From contig CAZAUC010000001.1 of assembly GCA_964488305.1 (NCBI GenBank), positions 3,305 through 37,761 on the forward strand: a stretch of DNA of 34,457 nt. Direction: 5' to 3'. Position 1 is the first letter of the stretch; each line of letters begins with the position of its first letter. This DNA comes from an uncultured Candidatus Saccharibacteria bacterium (GTDB lineage Bacteria > Patescibacteriota > Minisyncoccia > UBA6257 > UBA9933). The notes under the pieces were generated by a model. That model worked only from the letters and a program-made list of their open reading frames with translations, did not search any database and was not told where the DNA came from. The position numbers and the translations under genes are program-made. Below, piece by piece: positions 3,791 through 19,583 of the stretch.

Positions 3791-4201
3791 ATGACTATTT
3801 TGAACAGATTAAAATCAAAAAAAGATAAAACACAGACGAGAAAGGCGGACAGCTCGGACGAAGCGCGCGGAAAGCAGGGCCCGGCCGTTGTCGCCGAGGG
3901 CGGACAGACAGCTATTCCGCGCCACTCCGCGTTATTGATTAGACAGCCGTGGGTGACGGAAAAGGCGGGTGATTTGTCGGCTTTGGGAAAATACGTTTTC
4001 ATAGCCGACAAGAAAACGAATAAAGCAGAAGCCAAAAGAGCCATTGAATCAATTTACGGCGTAAACGTGGAAAAGGTTAACGTTGTCAATATCAAAGGCA
4101 AGGCAAAGAGATTGGGGCGGAGCTTGGGACGGACTTCAGCCCATAAGAAAATAATTGTGACACTGAAGGAGGGCCAAAAAATTGACATTATGCCAACGTA
4201 A
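3791..4201 (+). CDS. rplW: 50S ribosomal protein L23 with about 45-aa N-terminal extension
   Basis: The C-terminal approximately 90 aa (IRQPWVTEKA...YVFIADKKTNKAEAKRAIESIYGVNVEKVN...KKIIVTL) are L23-like. No internal ATG is available. Confidence 0.85.
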   Translation: MTILNRLKSKKDKTQTRKADSSDEARGKQGPAVVAEGGQTAIPRHSALLIRQPWVTEKAGDLSALGKYVFIADKKTNKAEAKRAIESIYGVNVEKVNVVNIKGKAKRLGRSLGRTSAHKKIIVTLKEGQKIDIMPT

Positions 4202-4327
4202 AAAAATTAAAATTGAAAAATCAAAAATTAAAATGACAATGAAAAATTAAAAATTGGCAAAAGTTAAAATTTTTTCGCCAATGGCGAATACCTAAATTTT
4301 ACATTTTGATATTTACATTTTGAATTT
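4200..4327 (+). repeat. AT-rich MITE-like repeat, copy A (rplW-rplB spacer)
   Basis: About 128 nt, nearly identical to 11756-11888. Contains an internal hairpin (ttcgcc aat ggcgaa) and inverted terminal words (atcaaaatg / cattttgat). Confidence 0.85.
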
Positions 4328-5577: not shown

Positions 5578-6108
5578 ATGGAAACGGGAAAGGAACAAAA
5601 AGCATCTTTAAAACATCTGCACATTGCCCCGCGCAAGGTGCAGTCGGTTGCCAATCTCATTAAAGGATTATCGGTAAATGAAGCCGAGGCGCAGCTTTTA
5701 ACCAATCCGAGAAGGCCGGCCGCGGCCTTACTGGGACTGTTGCGTTCGGCGGCGGCTAACGCAAAGAATAACCAGCAATTAAATGCGGAGCGTCTCTTCG
5801 TCAAGGAAGTCAGGGTGGATAAAGGACCAATACTTAAGAGATATATGCCGCGCGCCATGGGACGGGCGAATCTTATCCAAAAGAAAAGCAGTCACGTAAT
5901 TTTGGTTCTGGCGGAATCGGAGAAAGTAAAGCCGCCGCGATTCAAAATTACTAAGCCGGAAAGAATCAAGAAGCACGTGGCTGAAAAGATGAAAAGACAA
6001 AGAAAGGTGGAGCAAAAGGAAAAAACGAGAGAAGAAGAGGTTAAGGAACCGAGACAAACTAAAGGTCCGGGATTTATTAGAAAAATTTTTAGAAGAAAAA
6101 CGGTGTAG
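5578..6108 (+). CDS. rplV: 50S ribosomal protein L22 with Lys/Glu-rich C-terminal tail
   Basis: L22 core (HIAPRKVQSVANLIKG...VDKGPILKRYMPRAMGRANLIQKKSSHV) followed by a charged tail of about 60 aa. Confidence 0.93.
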   Translation: METGKEQKASLKHLHIAPRKVQSVANLIKGLSVNEAEAQLLTNPRRPAAALLGLLRSAAANAKNNQQLNAERLFVKEVRVDKGPILKRYMPRAMGRANLIQKKSSHVILVLAESEKVKPPRFKITKPERIKKHVAEKMKRQRKVEQKEKTREEEVKEPRQTKGPGFIRKIFRRKTV

Positions 6109-6146
6109 AGGGCTTGGTCCCCGCTAAGCGGGGTTATCAAACCTTT
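6109..6146 (+). repeat. partial copy (first hairpin only) of the post-stop-codon element
   Basis: agggcttggtccccgctaagcggggttatcaaaccttt lies directly after the rplV TAG. A C-to-T change relative to the 214-bp copies keeps the pairing as G-U. Confidence 0.7.
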
Positions 6147-6163
6147 ATTTTAATCACATTGGC

Positions 6164-6835
6164 ATGGGACAAAAAATTAAACCAAATTCATTAAGAACGG
6201 GAGTCAGCCGGGGCTGGTTGACTAATTGGTTTCCAAAGAAAGCCAATTTGAAAGCCATGCTGGAGGAAGACGTTTTAATCAGAAACACAATAAATAAAAA
6301 AATCAGCGCCGCCGGCATTGACAGCATTTTGATAGAAAAGGCCGCCAATAATTATAAGGTTATAATCAAGGCAGCCCGCCCGGGTTTGATTATCGGTCGC
6401 GGCGGAAAAGGCATTGAAGAATTGAGTAAATTATTGGAAAGCAAGCTTAAAGAATTGAGAAGAAAAAAAGGAGTTTTGGAACAGGTCTCTCTCAATGTAA
6501 ATATTGAAGAATTAAAACGCAACGACATTTCAGCCAACGTCGTTGCCCAAAACATTGCCTGGGATTTTGAAAAAAGACTGCCGTACCGCCGGACCATCAA
6601 AAGACATTTGGACCAGATACTACAGAATAAGGAAGTTAAAGGAGCCAAAATTATGGTTAAGGGCAGATTGGACGGAGCGGAGATTGCCAGGGACGAACAT
6701 TTGGAAAAAGGCAAGTTGCCTTTGCAGACGCTTCGGGCTAACATTGATTACGGCACCGCCACCGCGTTTACGACGTACGGGACGGTCGGCATAAAAGTAT
6801 GGATTTACAAAGGAGAAGTGTTCAAGGAAAGTTAA
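6164..6835 (+). CDS. rpsC: 30S ribosomal protein S3
   Basis: MGQKIKPNSLRTGV... and the KH-domain motif ARPGLIIGRGGKGIE. Confidence 0.96.
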   Translation: MGQKIKPNSLRTGVSRGWLTNWFPKKANLKAMLEEDVLIRNTINKKISAAGIDSILIEKAANNYKVIIKAARPGLIIGRGGKGIEELSKLLESKLKELRRKKGVLEQVSLNVNIEELKRNDISANVVAQNIAWDFEKRLPYRRTIKRHLDQILQNKEVKGAKIMVKGRLDGAEIARDEHLEKGKLPLQTLRANIDYGTATAFTTYGTVGIKVWIYKGEVFKES

Positions 6836-6911
6836 AAGTTCATCAGGTTCATAAAGTTTATAAAGTCAACTTTATAAACTTTAAAACTTTACAAACTTTA
6901 TAGACTAATTA

Positions 6912-7322
6912 ATGTTAATACCCAAAAAAGTTAAACATAGAAAATGGCAGAAAGGACGGTCACGTAAGAGAACGAAGGAAACACGAGGCATCACGTTGTC
7001 TTTCGGCAGTTTCGGTTTGCAATCCTTGGAGAACGCCTGGATTAATTCAAGACAAATTGAAGCCGCCCGAAAAACCATTAGCCATTTTACCAAGAGAGGC
7101 GGTAAGGTTTGGTTGAGAATTTTTCCCGACAAACCAATAACTAAACGCCCGCCGGAAACGACAATGGGCGGAGGCAAAGGCAGTGTTGAATACTATGTTT
7201 TTCCGGTCAGGGTCGGAAGAATAATTTTTGAGATTGACGGCGTGTCGGAAGAAATGGCGAAAGAGGCTTTTAGAAGGGCTGGCCATAAATTACCGGTTAA
7301 AACCAGGGTCGTGAGCAAATAA
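6912..7322 (+). CDS. rplP: 50S ribosomal protein L16
   Basis: [11 protein letters not shown]...RMGGGKG-type motif ([14 protein letters not shown]) and operon order. Confidence 0.95.
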
Positions 7323-7342
7323 GTTTTAACGAGGGATAAAAC

Positions 7343-7549
7343 ATGAAAAACAAAGAAATTAAGCAAATTAAAGATAAGCCGGTGCAGGAACTCCAAAAAA
7401 ATTTGGTTGAGTATCGCGAGACGCTGAGAAAGCTTAAATTTGATTTGAGCCAGGGAAAAGTAAAAAACATCAAACAGATTAAAGAAACGAAAAAGATGAT
7501 TGCGCGAATATTAACCATTCTTAACCAACGACAGACGACCAAGGACTAA
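7343..7549 (+). CDS. rpmC: 50S ribosomal protein L29
   Basis: 68 aa. The pattern ...LQKNLVEYRETLRKLKFDLSQGKVKN and the position after rplP fit L29. Confidence 0.9.
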   Translation: MKNKEIKQIKDKPVQELQKNLVEYRETLRKLKFDLSQGKVKNIKQIKETKKMIARILTILNQRQTTKD

Positions 7550-7593
7550 CGACGTTATTATGAGCCATAAGTTATAGGTTCTAAGTTAAAATT

Positions 7594-7842
7594 ATGAGAA
7601 AATTACAAGGAATAATAGTTTCCGACAAAATGGACAAGACAAGAGTCGTGTCAGTTACGCGTCTAAAAAAACATCCCCGCTATAAAAAATATTATAAGGT
7701 GATGCGTAAGTTTAAAGCCCACGACGGCAAAAATGAATATAAAACGGGGGATAAAGTCGTCATTGAGGAAACCAGGCCTTTATCAAAAGATAAAAGATGG
7801 CGCATAGTGAGCAAAGAGCAAAGCGCTAATCGCGAATCATAA
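7594..7842 (+). CDS. rpsQ: 30S ribosomal protein S17
   Basis: [18 protein letters not shown]...KKHPRYKKY...[25 protein letters not shown]. Confidence 0.93.
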
Positions 7843-7886
7843 ATAAAACGATTTGCGCTATGCGATAAGCGATTAGCTTAAATAAC

Positions 7887-8255
7887 ATGATACAAGAACG
7901 TTCAATGTTAAACGTGGCGGATAACAGCGGAGCAAAATTGATTCAATGCTTTCGCGTTTTAGGCGCGACGCGGCGACGCTACGCCCGAATCGGCGATGTC
8001 GTCGTTGCTTCGGTAAAGAAAGCCGAACCGAGAAAAGCCGTTAAGAAAAAAGATATCGTCAGGGCGGTTATAGTCAGGCAAAAGCAGCCATTAAGGCGAA
8101 CGGACGGTTCCTACGTTCGTTTTGACGAGAATGCCGCGGTCTTGGTTGACGCCAAAAAAGAACCGAAAGCTACCAGGATTTTTGGTCCAATTCCCCGGGA
8201 GATAAAAGAAAAGGGTTTTGAGAAAATAATGACAATGGCTCAGGAAATAGTATAA
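7887..8255 (+). CDS. rplN: 50S ribosomal protein L14
   Basis: MIQERSMLNVADNSGAK... is the canonical L14 N-terminus. Confidence 0.96.
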   Translation: MIQERSMLNVADNSGAKLIQCFRVLGATRRRYARIGDVVVASVKKAEPRKAVKKKDIVRAVIVRQKQPLRRTDGSYVRFDENAAVLVDAKKEPKATRIFGPIPREIKEKGFEKIMTMAQEIV

Positions 8256-8349
8256 ACTGACTAACAACTTACAACTAACAACTAACAACTAACGACAAGA
8301 CGGAATTTAAAAAAATCGTAGGTTGTAAGTCGTAAGTCATAAGTTAAAT

Positions 8350-8655
8350 ATGAAGATTCATAAAGGAGACACAATTAAAATAATTAACGGCAAAGACAAA
8401 GGTAAGACGGGAAAAGTGTTGAAAATTTTGATTAAAAAAAACAAGGTCTTGGTTGACGGATTGAATCTTTATAAGAAGCATGTCCGTCCCAAAAACCAGG
8501 GAGAGAAAGGGGAAGTAGTTTCGGTACCGCGGCCGATGGATGTTTCCAATGTTATGATTTTTTGTTCCGCCTGCAGCAAAGCGGTTAAAGTTGGTTATCG
8601 TTCTGATGCGGGAAAAAAGATAAGAATATGTAAAAAGTGCGGTGCGGCCGTATAA
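8350..8655 (+). CDS. rplX: 50S ribosomal protein L24 (KOW domain with C-terminal CxxC...CxxC)
   Basis: MKIHKGDTIKIINGKDKGKTGKVL is a KOW motif. The protein also carries the cysteine pairs CSAC and CKKC. Confidence 0.92.
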   Translation: MKIHKGDTIKIINGKDKGKTGKVLKILIKKNKVLVDGLNLYKKHVRPKNQGEKGEVVSVPRPMDVSNVMIFCSACSKAVKVGYRSDAGKKIRICKKCGAAV

Positions 8656-8664
8656 AAATGCGAT

Positions 8665-9156
8665 ATGAAAAAGAATTCAAACAAAAGCGAAACAATAAAA
8701 AAGATAGTGGTTAATGTCGGCATTGGAAAAATGAGCCAGCAGCCCAATTTTGAAGAGAAAGTTCTGCCGGAACTGACAAAAGAAATTTCTTTGATTACCG
8801 GCCAGAAACCGGCCATCACCAAGGCCAAAAAATCAATTGCCGGATTTAAAACGAGAGAGGGCCAGACGGTTGGTTTGAAAGTTACCCTGAGACGTCAGCG
8901 GATGTTGGATTTCTTGGAAAGATTGAATAAAATTGTCTTACCCAGGCTGAGAGATTTCCGCGGAATCAATTTGAAGAGCGTGGACAATAAGGGAAATTTG
9001 AACATCGGTTTGCGGGAGCAAATGGTCTTTCCAGAAATAAACCCTGAATCTTCCAGGATTGATTTTGGCCTGGAAATCACGATTGTCGGCGACACCAAGA
9101 ACAGGGAAGAGGCAATACAATCATTCAGAAATATGGGAATACCATTAAAAAAGTAA
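8665..9156 (+). CDS. rplE: 50S ribosomal protein L5 (short N-terminus)
   Basis: KKIVVNVGIGK...ITKAKKSIAGFKTREGQTVGLKVTLR...RDFRG motifs. No in-frame start lies further upstream. Confidence 0.92.
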   Translation: MKKNSNKSETIKKIVVNVGIGKMSQQPNFEEKVLPELTKEISLITGQKPAITKAKKSIAGFKTREGQTVGLKVTLRRQRMLDFLERLNKIVLPRLRDFRGINLKSVDNKGNLNIGLREQMVFPEINPESSRIDFGLEITIVGDTKNREEAIQSFRNMGIPLKK

Positions 9157-9317
9157 AGGGCTTGATTTGAATTTTTCAGTTTGCCGAAGGCAAACGGAAA
9201 AATTCAACATTCAAGCCTTTACCGAGCACATAGTATTGTTTTATAACCTTAGTGGTAATTTACAAATAAAACAAACAATTTTAAAGAATTTCTGTTAGAC
9301 AATACTATGTGCTCGGT
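9157..9317 (+). repeat. divergent paralogue of the post-stop element (two long hairpins) in the rplE-rpsN spacer
   Basis: Hairpin 1 spans about 9157-9220 (gggcttgatttgaattttt...aaaaattcaacattcaagccc-like). Hairpin 2 is a perfect 19-bp inverted repeat, accgagcacatagtattgt (9221-9239) with acaatactatgtgctcggt (9299-9317). Confidence 0.75.
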
Positions 9318-9376
9318 GCTCAATCTTATGATAAAATTTATTTCACCAAAGGTTCATAAATTTAAATAACATTGGC

Positions 9377-9562
9377 ATGGCAAAAAAATCAGTTATTGCG
9401 CGAGCAAAGAAAAAACCAAAATATTCCACACGGGTTGTCCGCCGCTGTTTTAAATGCGGTCGCAAACGCGGCTATCTGGGTGATTTCGGGTTGTGTCGGA
9501 TTTGTTTCAGGGAAATGGCAAGTCGCGGAGAGATACCCGGCGTTAAAAAAGCGTCATGGTAA
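9377..9562 (+). CDS. rpsN: 30S ribosomal protein S14, type Z (zinc-binding)
   Basis: 61 aa with [10 protein letters not shown]...CRICFRE, giving two CxxC pairs. Confidence 0.95.
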
Positions 9563-9769
9563 GGGCTTGGTCCCCGCTAAGCGGGGCTACCAAACCTTTA
9601 CCCAGCCCTTTCTATAAAAAACGTCAGAAAGGGCTGGGTGCTCAGTTTTATCACCCCGCCAAAATTTCAACATAATATAATGGTAGATTTTAAGATAAAA
9701 ATATTTTATTGTTTATCGTACCACCCCGCTAAATTCAAAGAAATTTAGGCGGGGATAAAAATGGCATGT
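9556..9769 (+). repeat. 214-bp structured intergenic element, copy 1 (rpsN-rpsH spacer)
   Basis: Read base by base as identical to 10140-10353. It includes the upstream gene's last sense codon (TGG) and TAA stop codon and the downstream gene's ATG. Confidence 0.95.
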
Positions 9770-10146
9770 ATATACAATTATTAACTCAACTTAAGAATGG
9801 CCAGTTGGTGAAAAAAGAAAGCGTTAAAGCCGCTTATTCCGTGATGGATGAAAAAATTTTAAAATTATTGAAAGAAAATGGTTATATTAAAGATTTTGAA
9901 AAAAAAGGAAGGGGAGCGAAGAAAATATTGGACGTTAAACTGAAATATGACAATGGCCAAGGGGTAATCTCCGGAATTAAATTTATCAGCAAACCGTCGT
10001 GCCGGATTTATATAGGTTATAAAGAAATAAAACCGGTTAAACACGGTTATGGATTACTGATAATTTCAACTCCCCGGGGGATTATAACTAATAAACAGGC
10101 GAGAAAAATGAAGGTCGGCGGCGAGGCATTATTTAAAATATGGTAA
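9766..10146 (+). CDS. rpsH: 30S ribosomal protein S8
   Basis: 126 aa. The C-terminus ...GYGLLIISTPRGIITNKQARKMKVGGEALFKIW is a typical S8 end. Confidence 0.93.
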   Translation: MYIQLLTQLKNGQLVKKESVKAAYSVMDEKILKLLKENGYIKDFEKKGRGAKKILDVKLKYDNGQGVISGIKFISKPSCRIYIGYKEIKPVKHGYGLLIISTPRGIITNKQARKMKVGGEALFKIW

Positions 10147-10353
10147 GGGCTTGGTCCCCGCTAAGCGGGGCTACCAAACCTTTACCCAGCCCTTTCTATA
10201 AAAAACGTCAGAAAGGGCTGGGTGCTCAGTTTTATCACCCCGCCAAAATTTCAACATAATATAATGGTAGATTTTAAGATAAAAATATTTTATTGTTTAT
10301 CGTACCACCCCGCTAAATTCAAAGAAATTTAGGCGGGGATAAAAATGGCATGT
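10140..10353 (+). repeat. 214-bp structured intergenic element, copy 2 (rpsH-rplF spacer)
   Basis: Identical to 9556-9769. Confidence 0.95.
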
Positions 10354-11325: not shown

Positions 11326-11808
11326 ATGCGGGAATTAAAAAAACAAAGTGAATTCAAAGAAAAAGTCATTGATTTGAGACGTGTTACGCGGGTGGTGGCA
11401 GGCGGTAAAAGATTTCGTTTTCGGACGACAGTAATTATTGGTGATGAAAAAGGCAGAGTGGGAGTGGGTATTGCCAAGGGAGTTGACGTGGCCCAATCGG
11501 TTGAAAAAGCCAAGGTCAGCGCCAAAAAGAGACTGATGAGGATTCCTCTTAAAGACAGAACCATTCCTTATGAAGTGGAGGCAAAATTCAGCGCCGCCCG
11601 GGTAATGATTAAGCCGGCTCGGAAAGGCCACGGTCTTAAGGCGGGCGGAGCAGTCAGGGCGGTTTTGCTTTTGGCTGGAATAAGAGACGCTACTGCTAAG
11701 TGTTTGGGCGGCACGAAAAATAAACTGACTAATGCGATGGCAACAATGAGAGCGTTAAAAAAATTAAAAATTGAAAAATCAAAAATCAAAATGACAATGA
11801 AAAATTAA
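11326..11808 (+). CDS. rpsE: 30S ribosomal protein S5
   Basis: VIDLRRVTRVVAGGKRFRFRTTVIIGD...GHGLKAGGAVRAVLLLAGI. The last approximately 15 codons lie inside an AT-rich repeat element. Confidence 0.94.
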   Translation: MRELKKQSEFKEKVIDLRRVTRVVAGGKRFRFRTTVIIGDEKGRVGVGIAKGVDVAQSVEKAKVSAKKRLMRIPLKDRTIPYEVEAKFSAARVMIKPARKGHGLKAGGAVRAVLLLAGIRDATAKCLGGTKNKLTNAMATMRALKKLKIEKSKIKMTMKN

Positions 11809-11888
11809 AAATTGGCAAACGTTAAAATATTTTCGCCAATGGCGAAATACCTAAATTTTACATTTTGATATTTACATTTTGAATTTTA
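11756..11888 (+). repeat. AT-rich MITE-like repeat, copy B (rpsE 3' end to rplO)
   Basis: Same element as 4200-4327 apart from a few substitutions and indels. The rpsE stop codon (11806-11808) lies inside it. Confidence 0.85.
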
Positions 11889-12434: not shown

Positions 12435-13703
12435 ATGTCTAAAATACTTCAGCTTTTTAAAATTAAAGACCTCCGCAATAAAATTTTGATGGTGGCTTTT
12501 TTATTGTTGTGTTTCCGGGCTTTGGCGGCCATCCCCATCCCGTCGGTTGACGCTTTAAAGTTGAGTGAATTTTTTTCCAGTAACCAGTTATTCGGCTTCT
12601 TGAACATTTTTTCCGGCGGCGCCCTGGATAATCTGTCCATCGTTATGCTTGGAGTGGCTCCCTACATTACCGCCACCATCATTATGCAGCTTTTAACGAT
12701 GATTTTTCCCGCGCTAAAAGCGATGTATTACGAAGAAGGAGCGGCTGGCCGGGCGAAATTTAACCGTTATTCGCGCTACCTGACGGTTCCTTTAGCCGTG
12801 CTTCAGGGCTACGGATTCCTGAACATTCTGATTTCTCAAGGCGTCATTTCCCAATTATCGCTGTTTGATTTAATCAAGAACGTTGTCATAATCACGGCCG
12901 GAACCATGGTTATGATTTGGATTGGCGAATTAATCAGTGAACGGAAAATAGGCAACGGCATTTCTTTGATAATCTTCGCCGGCATCGTCAGCCGGCTGCC
13001 GGCCAGTTTAAGGCAGGCAATCATTGGTTATACTCCGGAAACCCTGCCTACCTATCTTGTTTTCGCCGTGGTGGCGGTTTTGGTCATTGCCGGAGTGGTG
13101 TTCATCAATGAAGGCGAGCGAAAAATACCGATTGCTTACGCCAAAAGAGTCCGGGGGATGAAAATGTACGGCGGCGCTTCAAGTTATTTGCCGCTTAAGG
13201 TCAATCAGGCCGGAGTCATTCCCATTATTTTTGCCCTGTCCATTTTGCTTTTCCCGCAGTTCATCGCTCAGGCCAGTGCCATTTTCTCGCACGATTTGTC
13301 TTTAAAGCTTAATGATTTGGCGGCTTATCTTTTTAATAACCAATATATTTACAGCTTGTTTTATTTCTTGATGGTGGTGCTTTTTACTTATTTTTATACG
13401 GCGGTTACTTTTGACCCGAAAGAAATATCAAAAAATCTTCAGAGGGCAGGGGGATTCGTGGCCGGCGTCAGACCGGGTGATTCCACTTCAACCTTTCTTT
13501 CTAAAATTCTTAGCCGCTTGACCCTCTCGGGAGCACTGTTTTTGGGTTTGATAGCAATTCTGCCTAACATAACGCGGATGGTCACCGGCGTCGCGATTCT
13601 AACAATCGGCGGTACTGCGATTTTGATTGTCGTTTCAGTGGCTTTGGAAACCATTAAGCAGATAAATTCCCAACTAGTCGTCAGAGAATATGAAGAACTC
13701 TAA
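12435..13703 (+). CDS. secY: preprotein translocase subunit SecY
   Basis: 422-aa polytopic protein with LGVAPYITATIIMQLL and GNGISLIIFAGIVS motifs. Confidence 0.97.
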   Translation: MSKILQLFKIKDLRNKILMVAFLLLCFRALAAIPIPSVDALKLSEFFSSNQLFGFLNIFSGGALDNLSIVMLGVAPYITATIIMQLLTMIFPALKAMYYEEGAAGRAKFNRYSRYLTVPLAVLQGYGFLNILISQGVISQLSLFDLIKNVVIITAGTMVMIWIGELISERKIGNGISLIIFAGIVSRLPASLRQAIIGYTPETLPTYLVFAVVAVLVIAGVVFINEGERKIPIAYAKRVRGMKMYGGASSYLPLKVNQAGVIPIIFALSILLFPQFIAQASAIFSHDLSLKLNDLAAYLFNNQYIYSLFYFLMVVLFTYFYTAVTFDPKEISKNLQRAGGFVAGVRPGDSTSTFLSKILSRLTLSGALFLGLIAILPNITRMVTGVAILTIGGTAILIVVSVALETIKQINSQLVVREYEEL

Positions 13704-17052: not shown

Positions 17053-17113
17053 TCATAGAAATAAATTTAAAATTCAAAAATCAAAATGTAAAATTTATGA
17101 CCGAATAATTTCA

Positions 17114-18981: not shown

Positions 18982-19127
18982 CGGGTAACGCAAGGTCTAA
19001 TGCTGGGGACATCCGATATCCAAAATATTAACGTTAATTTTGGGACATTGGATGTTCAAAAGTTAATAATTTTAACACTTTAAATTGTCATTTTAATCTT
19101 TGATTTTTGCATTTTGTATTTATTATT

Positions 19128-19583
19128 ATGGTTCACCATCTTACCAAGGAAGGATTTGAAGAGCTGAAAAGAGAGCTTGAAACCCTTAAGAAAGAGGGCC
19201 GGGCGGAAATTGCCGAACAACTTAGGCGTGCCAAAGAATACGGCGACCTTTCCGAAAATTCCGAATACGCCGACGCCAAAGAAGCGCAAAGTAAGCTGGA
19301 AAGCCGCATTTTTGAATTGGAAGAAATTATCAGGAATGCCGTTTTAATCAGGAAAAGCCAGCAGAAAGACGTGGTTAACGTCGGCTCAACGATTGAGGTT
19401 CAGAGAGGGGCTAAAAATTTTAAATATACGATTGTCGGTTCACGCGAGGCCAAGCCGGAAGCGAATTTGATTTCCAATGAATCGCCTTTGGGCCAGGCGT
19501 TTCTGGGCAAGCGGGCGGGCGATACAGTGGAAATAGAAACTCCCAACGGCAAGGCAAAATATAAAATATTAAAAATAGAATAA
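19128..19583 (+). CDS. greA: transcription elongation factor GreA
   Basis: LTKEGFEELKRELETLK...AKEYGDLSENSEYADAKEAQ...NLISNESPLGQAFLGKRAGD. ATG at 19128 is preferred over TTG at 19107. Confidence 0.93.
   Translation: MVHHLTKEGFEELKRELETLKKEGRAEIAEQLRRAKEYGDLSENSEYADAKEAQSKLESRIFELEEIIRNAVLIRKSQQKDVVNVGSTIEVQRGAKNFKYTIVGSREAKPEANLISNESPLGQAFLGKRAGDTVEIETPNGKAKYKILKIE

Follow-up and report, generated by a model that had tools for sequence, protein, structure and literature searches.

The question raised by this locus is what kind of sequence can fill the spacers of an essential operon exactly from the stop codon of one gene to the start codon of the next. The locus is a ribosomal protein operon in a stretch of 34,457 nucleotides (nt), called the window below, from contig CAZAUC010000001.1 (positions 3,305 to 37,761; GenBank assembly GCA_964488305.1) of an uncultured Candidatus Saccharibacteria bacterium (GTDB lineage Patescibacteriota; Minisyncoccia; UBA6257; UBA9933). 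The nearest named relatives of this host are Candidatus Wolfebacteria and Paceibacterota metagenome-assembled genomes (MAGs). An earlier note on this DNA had described hairpins placed directly after the stop codons of rplV, rplE, rpsN and rpsH. Our analysis suggests that these four spacers are fairly likely to be copies of a selfish, modular mobile DNA cassette, which is specific to the order and linked to a GIY-YIG nuclease, and that they are not primarily host regulatory RNAs. Master copies of about 400 nt carry a GIY-YIG gene of 75–85 amino acids (aa), and the window's copies of 60–220 nt appear to be gene-less or internally deleted derivatives of such masters.

A three-hairpin unit and the gene in its middle

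The anatomy of the element was read from about 70 copies in 25 genomes of the same family. A complete unit consists of three abutting hairpins, H1, H2 and H3, in the arrangement [TAAAGG-H1-CCTTTA][CC-H2-GG]T[GC(T)CAAT-H3-ATTGGC]ATG. The stop codon TAA base-pairs with TTA of the CCTTTA linker, i.e., it lies inside the base of H1, and at the other end the 3' strand of H3 stops at the start codon, where the T preceding GC is able to pair with the A of ATG. The bulged T of H3 was invariant (41 of 41 copies), and H2 stems were 12–27 base pairs (bp) long. H1 usually ended in a C-(GNA)-G apex, e.g., GCGAAGC, with apical loops of the G-N-A or G-N-N-A type. Since the GCGAAGC-type apex is a very stable DNA mini-hairpin motif, it gives a weak hint of DNA-level recognition of H1. 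Among the 52 copies with a canonical H1 start, 34 abutted the stop codon of a long upstream open reading frame (ORF), and this stop was TAA in 33 of the 34 cases compared with 67% genome-wide (p = 2e-5); copies that had no upstream gene also opened with TAAAGGGCTT. The right end read ..TTGGC-ATG in most copies and rarely ..TTGGCA-ATG or ..TTGGCAT-ATG. All parsed copies were directly followed by the own-strand ATG of a long ORF, and their orientation was always that of the downstream gene. At one locus two copies faced apart, each preceding its own gene; therefore, orientation tracks the gene and not the replication strand.

When the window was re-read, the positions of the stop and start codons reported for the four ribosomal protein spacers were all correct. 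The stops of rplE, rpsN and rpsH are followed by (A)GGGCTTG(R), and the downstream genes begin at ..ATTGGC-ATG or ..ATGGC-ATG; all features given here are on the forward strand. Copy A (6109–6163) abuts the rplV stop codon TAG (6106–6108) and is composed of H1 (6109–6147, AGGGCTTGG..CAAACCTTTA, in which one stem pair is G-U as compared with copies C and D) and the last 16 nt of the 3' strand of H3 (6148–6163, TTTTAATCACATTGGC, as compared with the H3 ends ..AAATTTTAATCACATTGGC elsewhere), flush with the rpsC start codon (6164–6166). H2 and the 5' half of H3 are gone, and to judge from the sequence this looks like a deletion between two TTTA repeats. In copy B, the rplE stop TAA (9154–9156) is paired into the base of a long H1 variant (9157–9221, covariance-model match C1:12458-12527), which is followed by an H2 of 95 nt (9222–9316, arms CCGAGCACATAGTATTGT / ACAATACTATGTGCTCGG) and by an H3 (9318–9376, GCTCAAT..ATTGGC) whose 3' strand reaches the rpsN start codon (9377–9379). 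In copy C, the rpsN stop TAA (9560–9562) pairs with TTA of the CCTTTA linker, H1 is a short variant (9563–9600) with the apex CCCCGC-TAA-GCGGGG, H2 has 38 nt (9601–9638, arms CCCAGCCCTTTC / GAAAGGGCTGGG) and is an ORF-less relative of a nuclease-bearing H2 on contig C20, and H3 is a long 126-nt variant (9640–9765) ending at the rpsH start codon (9766–9768). Copy D lies between the rpsH stop TAA (10144–10146) and the rplF start codon (10350–10352), and its H1 (10147–10184), H2 (10185–10222) and H3 (10224–10349) are each identical to those of copy C. Altogether, the rpsN-rpsH and rpsH-rplF spacers share 214 identical nt (9556–9769 and 10140–10353). An assembly artefact can be dismissed, as independently assembled sequences from six metagenome samples contain both 214-nt copies. 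The rplE-rpsN spacer had been reported to share a two-hairpin layout with this 214-nt repeat. The shared layout was confirmed, with CCTTTACC before and GGTGCTCA after an unrelated stem, but the count of hairpins was not, because the unit has a third hairpin, H3, which extends up to the ATG.

A search of the 477-kb, 95.6%-complete genome by BLAST and motif scans revealed about 20 element copies on 13 contigs, about 16 of them beyond the window's four. These copies were mosaics. For example, the H3 on contig C14 is that of the rpsN copy (97% identity over 136 nt), the copy on C8 has its H1 in common with the rplE copy and its H2 in common with the rpsN copy, and contigs C10 and C19 carry the H2 of the rplE copy. 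H1, H2 and H3 variants are thus reassorted between loci at conserved joints.

One of these copies contains a gene. On contig C20 (3465–3730), an intact 79-aa ORF fills the H2 loop from stem to stem and matches Pfam family PF01541 (GIY-YIG) at E = 2e-12; the match covers residues 1–60, and no other domain was found. A truncated GIY-YIG relative is present in H2 on contig C14, and five further intact GIY-YIG ORFs of 75–85 aa were found in H2 loops of sister genomes (six intact ORFs in all), and those five retain the catalytic positions Tyr, Tyr, Arg, His and Glu. In NCBIfam the nuclease had a sub-threshold match only, and its best sequence match in PDB was UPF0213 protein BH0048 (1zg2, E = 0.002). 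ORF-less copies have the arms of the ORF-bearing copy of the same genome. For example, genome G052 contains ten H2 copies of 54 nt and one of 284 nt, and their arms are CCCAGCACC(T/A)TTTT throughout.

Several individual loci showed features of their own. The copy on contig C7 (18559–18700) keeps H1 and H2, has TTGAAAGTTTGGATATAATTAGT in place of H3 and no ATG after it, and precedes what looks like a structured non-coding RNA. On the reverse strand of contig C2 (26636–26663, reverse-strand coordinates), 3' of H2, the usual ..GGCATG reads ..GGCAGG; here a prepilin-like gene (MNKFLSLNSKIYKKSAG/QSLVEILIA..) seems to use an ATG inside H3, and the element would encode its leader peptide. At locus L042 of the same species (JGI sample 3300031364), an A-to-G change turns the conserved C·A mismatch of H1 into C-G, and another same-species variant at this locus lost H2 by a 50-nt deletion between CCC repeats. 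N runs, i.e., masked or unassembled stretches in repeats, interrupt the H2 of the copy on C13 (9783–9882) and a neighbouring gene (C15:~12630–12730). Besides, five more small GIY-YIG ORFs are located outside the element (C6:19228-19485(-), C25:914-1120(+), C12:17995-18192(-), C15:1615-1812(+) and C4:6335-6424(+)). Those on C6, C15 and C4 adjoin tRNA genes, with part of the tRNA 5' half duplicated upstream on C6 and C15, and all five look like free-standing nucleases targeting tRNA genes.

Gain, loss and distribution of the cassette

We found that most orthologous junctions in related genomes have no such element. The L5/S14, S14/S8 and S8/L6 junctions were mostly 0–12 nt long (e.g., TAA-a-ATG) in 29 genomes that belong to the family; a few of them held unrelated short-word hairpins, and two genomes held H1-type copies. 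The clearest comparison was that of G052 with G017, two genomes of one genus, in which six loci with flanks 83–98% identical carried the element in only one of the two genomes. All six filled alleles read TAA-(A)GGGCTT...TTGGC(AT)-ATG, the native 4–60-nt spacer was wholly absent from them, and no target-site duplication was present in the six filled/empty pairs. TTTA and TAA were considered as target-site duplications and rejected, as they were not consistent across copies and were contradicted by these pairs. One pair differed in its stop codon, with TAG where the element is absent and TAA where it is present. One "empty" allele reads TAA-ATTGGC-ATG; its ATTGGC equals the right end of the element and is a footprint of an earlier copy. 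These comparisons showed that the whole trio of hairpins is the unit that appears at new junctions, and that it replaces the entire native spacer.

In G017 and G052, the ORF-bearing elements occupy different loci and are 90% identical over exactly the span from H1 to ATG (410 nt), and the locus that bears the ORF in G052 is empty in G017. At one orthologous locus filled in both genomes, H2 was 54 nt long in one and 112 nt in the other. Taken together with the filled/empty pairs, this indicates movement at two levels: the trio moves as a whole, and in addition H2 is exchanged between one trio and another. Spacer replacement was also seen between G046 and G008, although the junction there was fuzzy because the flanks were only about 76% identical.

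A covariance model of H1 found matches in 87 of 301 sampled genomes of the order, representing 68 of 197 genera, with up to 17 scored matches per genome and a presence that was patchy even within families. Among 400 genomes across the phylum, the same model gave 1 marginal match. The nuclease with H2-style arms, with consensus (A)CCCCGCACCTTT../..AAAGGTGCGGGG(T), was spread across the phylum, and such arms bracket about 45 of 80 fetched nuclease homologues. Homologues of the C20 nuclease with CCCCGCACCTTT-type arms were found inside 16S rRNA genes of other MAGs of the candidate phyla radiation (CPR; L169, L181, L203), and further homologues were found at the 5' edge of RNase P RNA genes (L183, L184) or tRNA genes (L178, L185, L194); all these RNA genes were confirmed with Rfam. 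A scan of a 596-Gb collection for CTTTACC-N-GGTGCTCA gave chance matches only, and it was uninformative because the pattern is too short for a collection of this size.

Two other kinds of repeats were observed in the window. Stop-to-start palindromes of low complexity, built of short repeated words such as ataaagtt/aactttat and atacgaaa/tttcgtat, occupy positions 6836–6911 and 8256–8349, in other spacers of this ribosomal protein operon, and also occur at the S14/S8/L6 junctions of sister genomes (L012–L037); they form a second class of hairpin spacers that is unrelated to the three-hairpin element. An A/T-rich direct repeat of 89 nt (4200–4288 and 11758–11846, 94% identical) lies upstream of two genes, and arms related to it are present at 17054–17097 and 19079–19130.

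Folding, covariation and the competing explanations

The observed hairpins could be maintained as RNA or as DNA. Compared with 200 shuffles, whole elements folded well beyond expectation (z = -9.7 and -7.4), as did H2 (z = -6.6 and -7.9), the long H1 of copy B (z = -8.2) and the long H3 of copy C (z = -4.4), whereas the short H1 hairpins were only marginal (z = -2.0 and -2.7). For covariation we used a fixed-register skeleton alignment of 30 distinct copies, which included the basal 10–12 bp of each hairpin. In this alignment 93.8% of cells were paired compared with 77.3% in shuffles, and the observed value was reached in none of 500 shuffles. Double-sided changes occurred in 18 of 31 pairs, and the covariation score was 0.393, falling to 0.071 or less when partners were slid. 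Similarly, RNAalifold detected compensatory changes at 13 of 23 pairs in 28 full H1 sequences. All three stems covary strongly. The earlier note was therefore right that structure is kept while sequence changes, and the checks it had proposed, i.e., folding against shuffled sequence and a search for further copies and covariation in related genomes, came out in favor of a conserved fold, clearly for whole elements, H2 and long H1 and marginally for short H1.

Covariation by itself does not tell which molecule folds. Sense-strand RNA would be expected to tolerate G·U far better than A·C. However, when the 12 bp at the base of H2 were compared among 65 distinct copies, 16 cells were G·U and 20 were A·C (p = 0.62); counted as independent events, these mismatches were 15 G·U and 13 A·C (p = 0.85), and those in H3 were 7 G·U and 8 A·C. 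Such similar frequencies carry no signature of sense-strand RNA and fit palindromic DNA or hairpins that form on either strand. A change from C to T in copy A, which turns a G-C pair into G-U, had been taken as the signature of a selected RNA structure. The change is real, being one of two C-to-T differences in this copy (the other is in a bulge), but it has no statistical weight and is not diagnostic, because G·U and A·C are equally frequent in the family. The view of the hairpins as a selected RNA structure, and not as a junk repeat, is unsupported in view of the mosaic multi-copy family, its variable presence, the nuclease gene and the absence of a G·U excess. As a more general caution, covariation alone is not proof of a functional RNA.

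In the mobile-cassette interpretation, which we favor, the nuclease would act by analogy to the Ssn nucleases discussed below: it would recognize the hairpins as single-stranded DNA and nick beside them. Gene conversion or template switching, with another copy of the element as the template, would then repair the break. If resolved at the TAA and ATG ends, the repair would replace the spacer; if resolved at the joints CCTTTA|CC and GG|TGCTCA, it would shuffle modules. Stem pairing would be kept because the hairpins are needed, first for single-stranded-DNA recognition and secondarily for folding the insert out of the way within the transcript. In the mRNA, the insert would fold into a stack of three hairpins, with UAA at one end and AUG at the other, and the long stem of H2 could be cleaved by the RNase III of the host. 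With such a compact stack and possible RNase III cutting, operon expression would survive the insertion, and it is probably this self-folding that makes the cassette harmless inside operons. The earlier RNA-regulator interpretation is thus partly supported: RNA-level effects, such as processing, stabilization and preserved coupling, are plausible as the reason why the cassette is tolerated. This interpretation also explains the presence of structured spacers of 60–400 nt within essential operons of streamlined CPR genomes.

Several observations weigh against this interpretation. The link between the nuclease and mobility is one of association, and the copy-rich genomes G046, G050 and G012 gave no ORF-bearing copy in the pattern search. 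GIY-YIG enzymes hydrolyse DNA without a covalent intermediate, and therefore the nuclease alone could not carry out strand transfer. The recombination model is a guess, because exact stop-to-start replacement without target duplication fits no known transposition chemistry. Strain-level insertion polymorphism was not found, as same-species contigs from up to 10 samples were all filled at three loci. Besides, the strict link between orientation and gene shows that something at the level of expression matters, and the conserved unpaired nucleotides of H1 and its G-N-A / G-N-N-A loops could equally reflect an RNA or RNA-protein function.

The last two points lead to the explanation that is essentially that of the earlier note, i.e., punctuation of operons selected by the host, with H1 protecting the upstream 3' end, H2 serving as an RNase III site and H3 forming a 5' hairpin or initiation region, all kept for mRNA processing, stability or translational coupling. 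Strong covariation of three stems, ends that are flush with stop and start codons, an orientation tied to the downstream gene, the pairing of the stop codon into H1 and of the A of ATG into H3, the conserved unpaired bases of H1 and an RNase III encoded in the genome would all be expected under this explanation, and other spacers of the operon and of sister genomes are also hairpins. Nevertheless, we consider it unlikely, because most orthologous junctions of sister genomes do without the element, congeneric genomes differ in its presence at 6 loci, identical or mosaic copies occupy unrelated loci, master copies enclose a nuclease gene, distribution across the order is patchy, and G·U and A·C mismatches are equally frequent. 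More doubtful still is a version in which only H2 is mobile, as a GIY-YIG hairpin cassette homing at the CTTTA / TGCTCA joint of a pre-existing landing pad made of H1 and H3, which would be a host leader. It would account for H2 arms that vary widely between constant CTTTA and TGCTCA flanks, for the orthologous filled locus that differs in the interior of H2 only, for copies with H1 and a tail that have no H2, and for homologous cassettes without H1 or H3 in rRNA, RNase P RNA and tRNA contexts of other CPR bacteria. Yet the empty alleles lack H1 and H3 as well, so that six pairs already point to gains of the complete trio; the homology of ORF-bearing copies at different loci covers the whole trio and stops at its ends; and the copy without H2 in the window resembles a deletion between two TTTA repeats.

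A third explanation, in which palindromes of the REP/BIME type (repetitive extragenic palindromic sequences and bacterial interspersed mosaic elements) or miniature elements of the IS200/IS605 type (IS, insertion sequence) are moved by an HUH-Y1 transposase, either a REP-associated tyrosine transposase (RAYT) or TnpA, has largely failed and is very improbable. Clustered intergenic hairpins with asymmetric ends, insertion beside the fixed short sequence TAA(A) and the absence of target duplication are in agreement with it, but no match to Y1_Tnp (PF01797) was found in this 95.6%-complete genome, while the same search was positive in 6 of 14 control genomes, and the only nuclease gene found within the elements is GIY-YIG.

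We tentatively propose, as a possibility on which we would not yet rely, that the cassette is an undescribed minimal autonomous mobile element of about 0.4 kb, which carries its own stop and start ends, is swapped in from stop to start with no target duplication, is driven by an 80-aa nuclease encoded in its middle hairpin loop and is made harmless by folding. The same module of nuclease and hairpins would also account for the GIY-YIG insertions other than introns that are seen in rRNA, RNase P RNA and tRNA genes of CPR bacteria. Literature searches gave no description of stop-to-start hairpin cassettes in CPR bacteria. If it is true that an 80-aa nuclease mobilizes the cassette, it would rank with the smallest known self-contained mobile elements and be the first element with an insertion logic set by gene boundaries, from stop to start codon, and not by sequence duplication.

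Comparison with known systems

Several known classes of sequence were tried and rejected. The element is not a classical insertion sequence or miniature inverted-repeat transposable element (MITE), as it fails on both terminal inverted repeats and target duplication: no terminal inverted repeats were present, the ends TAAAGGGCTT.. and ..ATTGGCATG are not complementary, and each hairpin is a palindrome of its own. Group I and group II introns were rejected since none of the Rfam families attained its gathering score in the window, where only chance miRNA-like hits (E up to 5) occurred. None of the H1, H2 and H3 hairpins was called as an intrinsic terminator, with H1 followed only by TTTA, and promoter-like hits were at shuffle level. 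With regard to integron attC sites, there were no RYYYAAC / GTTRRRY cores, the hairpins are three, and the flanked genes are essential ribosomal genes.

Other systems are alike in part. MITEs such as Correia/NEMIS, RUP and ERIC are also short, hairpin-forming, gene-less derivatives of a coding master that are transcribed within operons, but in our element one end of the composite is not an inverted repeat of the other, target-site duplications are absent, and the spacer is replaced and not interrupted. REP/BIME sequences with their RAYTs, and IS200/IS605 elements, share extragenic palindromes in mosaic clusters inside operons, presumed hairpin recognition and the absence of target duplication. 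They differ in that the gene associated with our element is GIY-YIG and in that its ends coincide with stop and start codons. REP hairpins affect mRNA stability. The intervening sequences that RNase III excises from rRNA provide a further parallel, as host RNase III might be able to excise the insert by way of its long stem; both a long near-perfect stem and a host RNase III gene (an ORF with the motif ERLEFLGD on contig C4) are present here.

Insertions that encode GIY-YIG proteins and resemble neither class of intron have been noted, without further analysis, in CPR rRNA genes (Tsurumaki et al., J Bacteriol 2024, PMC11270868). The nuclease family is the same, and the style of the hairpin arms matches H2. 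In contrast to our element, these insertions are single hairpin cassettes within RNA genes, and their arms, intergenic copies, an H1/H3 backbone and gene-less derivatives are not described in that report.

The closest known kind is the Ssn system. Ssn nucleases bind directional hairpins of single-stranded DNA and make their cut next to them, and the authors noted an IS-like "repeat-gene-repeat" architecture (Chenal et al., Nat Commun 2025, PMC11893778). As in the Ssn/NTS/SRM system, the protein is a tiny single-domain GIY-YIG protein (about 80–94 aa there and 75–85 aa here), and its gene is bracketed by directional hairpin repeats that are amplified in intergenic DNA (PMC11893778); here the ORF lies between the arms of H2, with H1 upstream and H3 downstream, so that amplified hairpins are found on both sides. 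The SRM motif itself, HGTCWYN(0-2)YYVSBRHN(0-5)WNVSBRGN(0-2)RNCYNB, had 1 match in the genome, outside the elements, compared with a mean of 0.75 in 20 dinucleotide shuffles, and was not enriched. The systems also differ in layout: in our case the gene is inside the loop of one hairpin and not between separate hairpins, and the three hairpins have fixed joints and occupy exactly the interval from stop to start codon, where they replace the spacer. The cassette would place the recently discovered Ssn-type nucleases, which act on single-stranded DNA, in the concrete context of a selfish element of ultra-small bacteria, and it links them to those puzzling GIY-YIG insertions in rRNA genes of CPR bacteria that are not introns. 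Together with its hairpins, the nuclease also provides testable enzyme-substrate pairs and possible tools for cutting single-stranded DNA.

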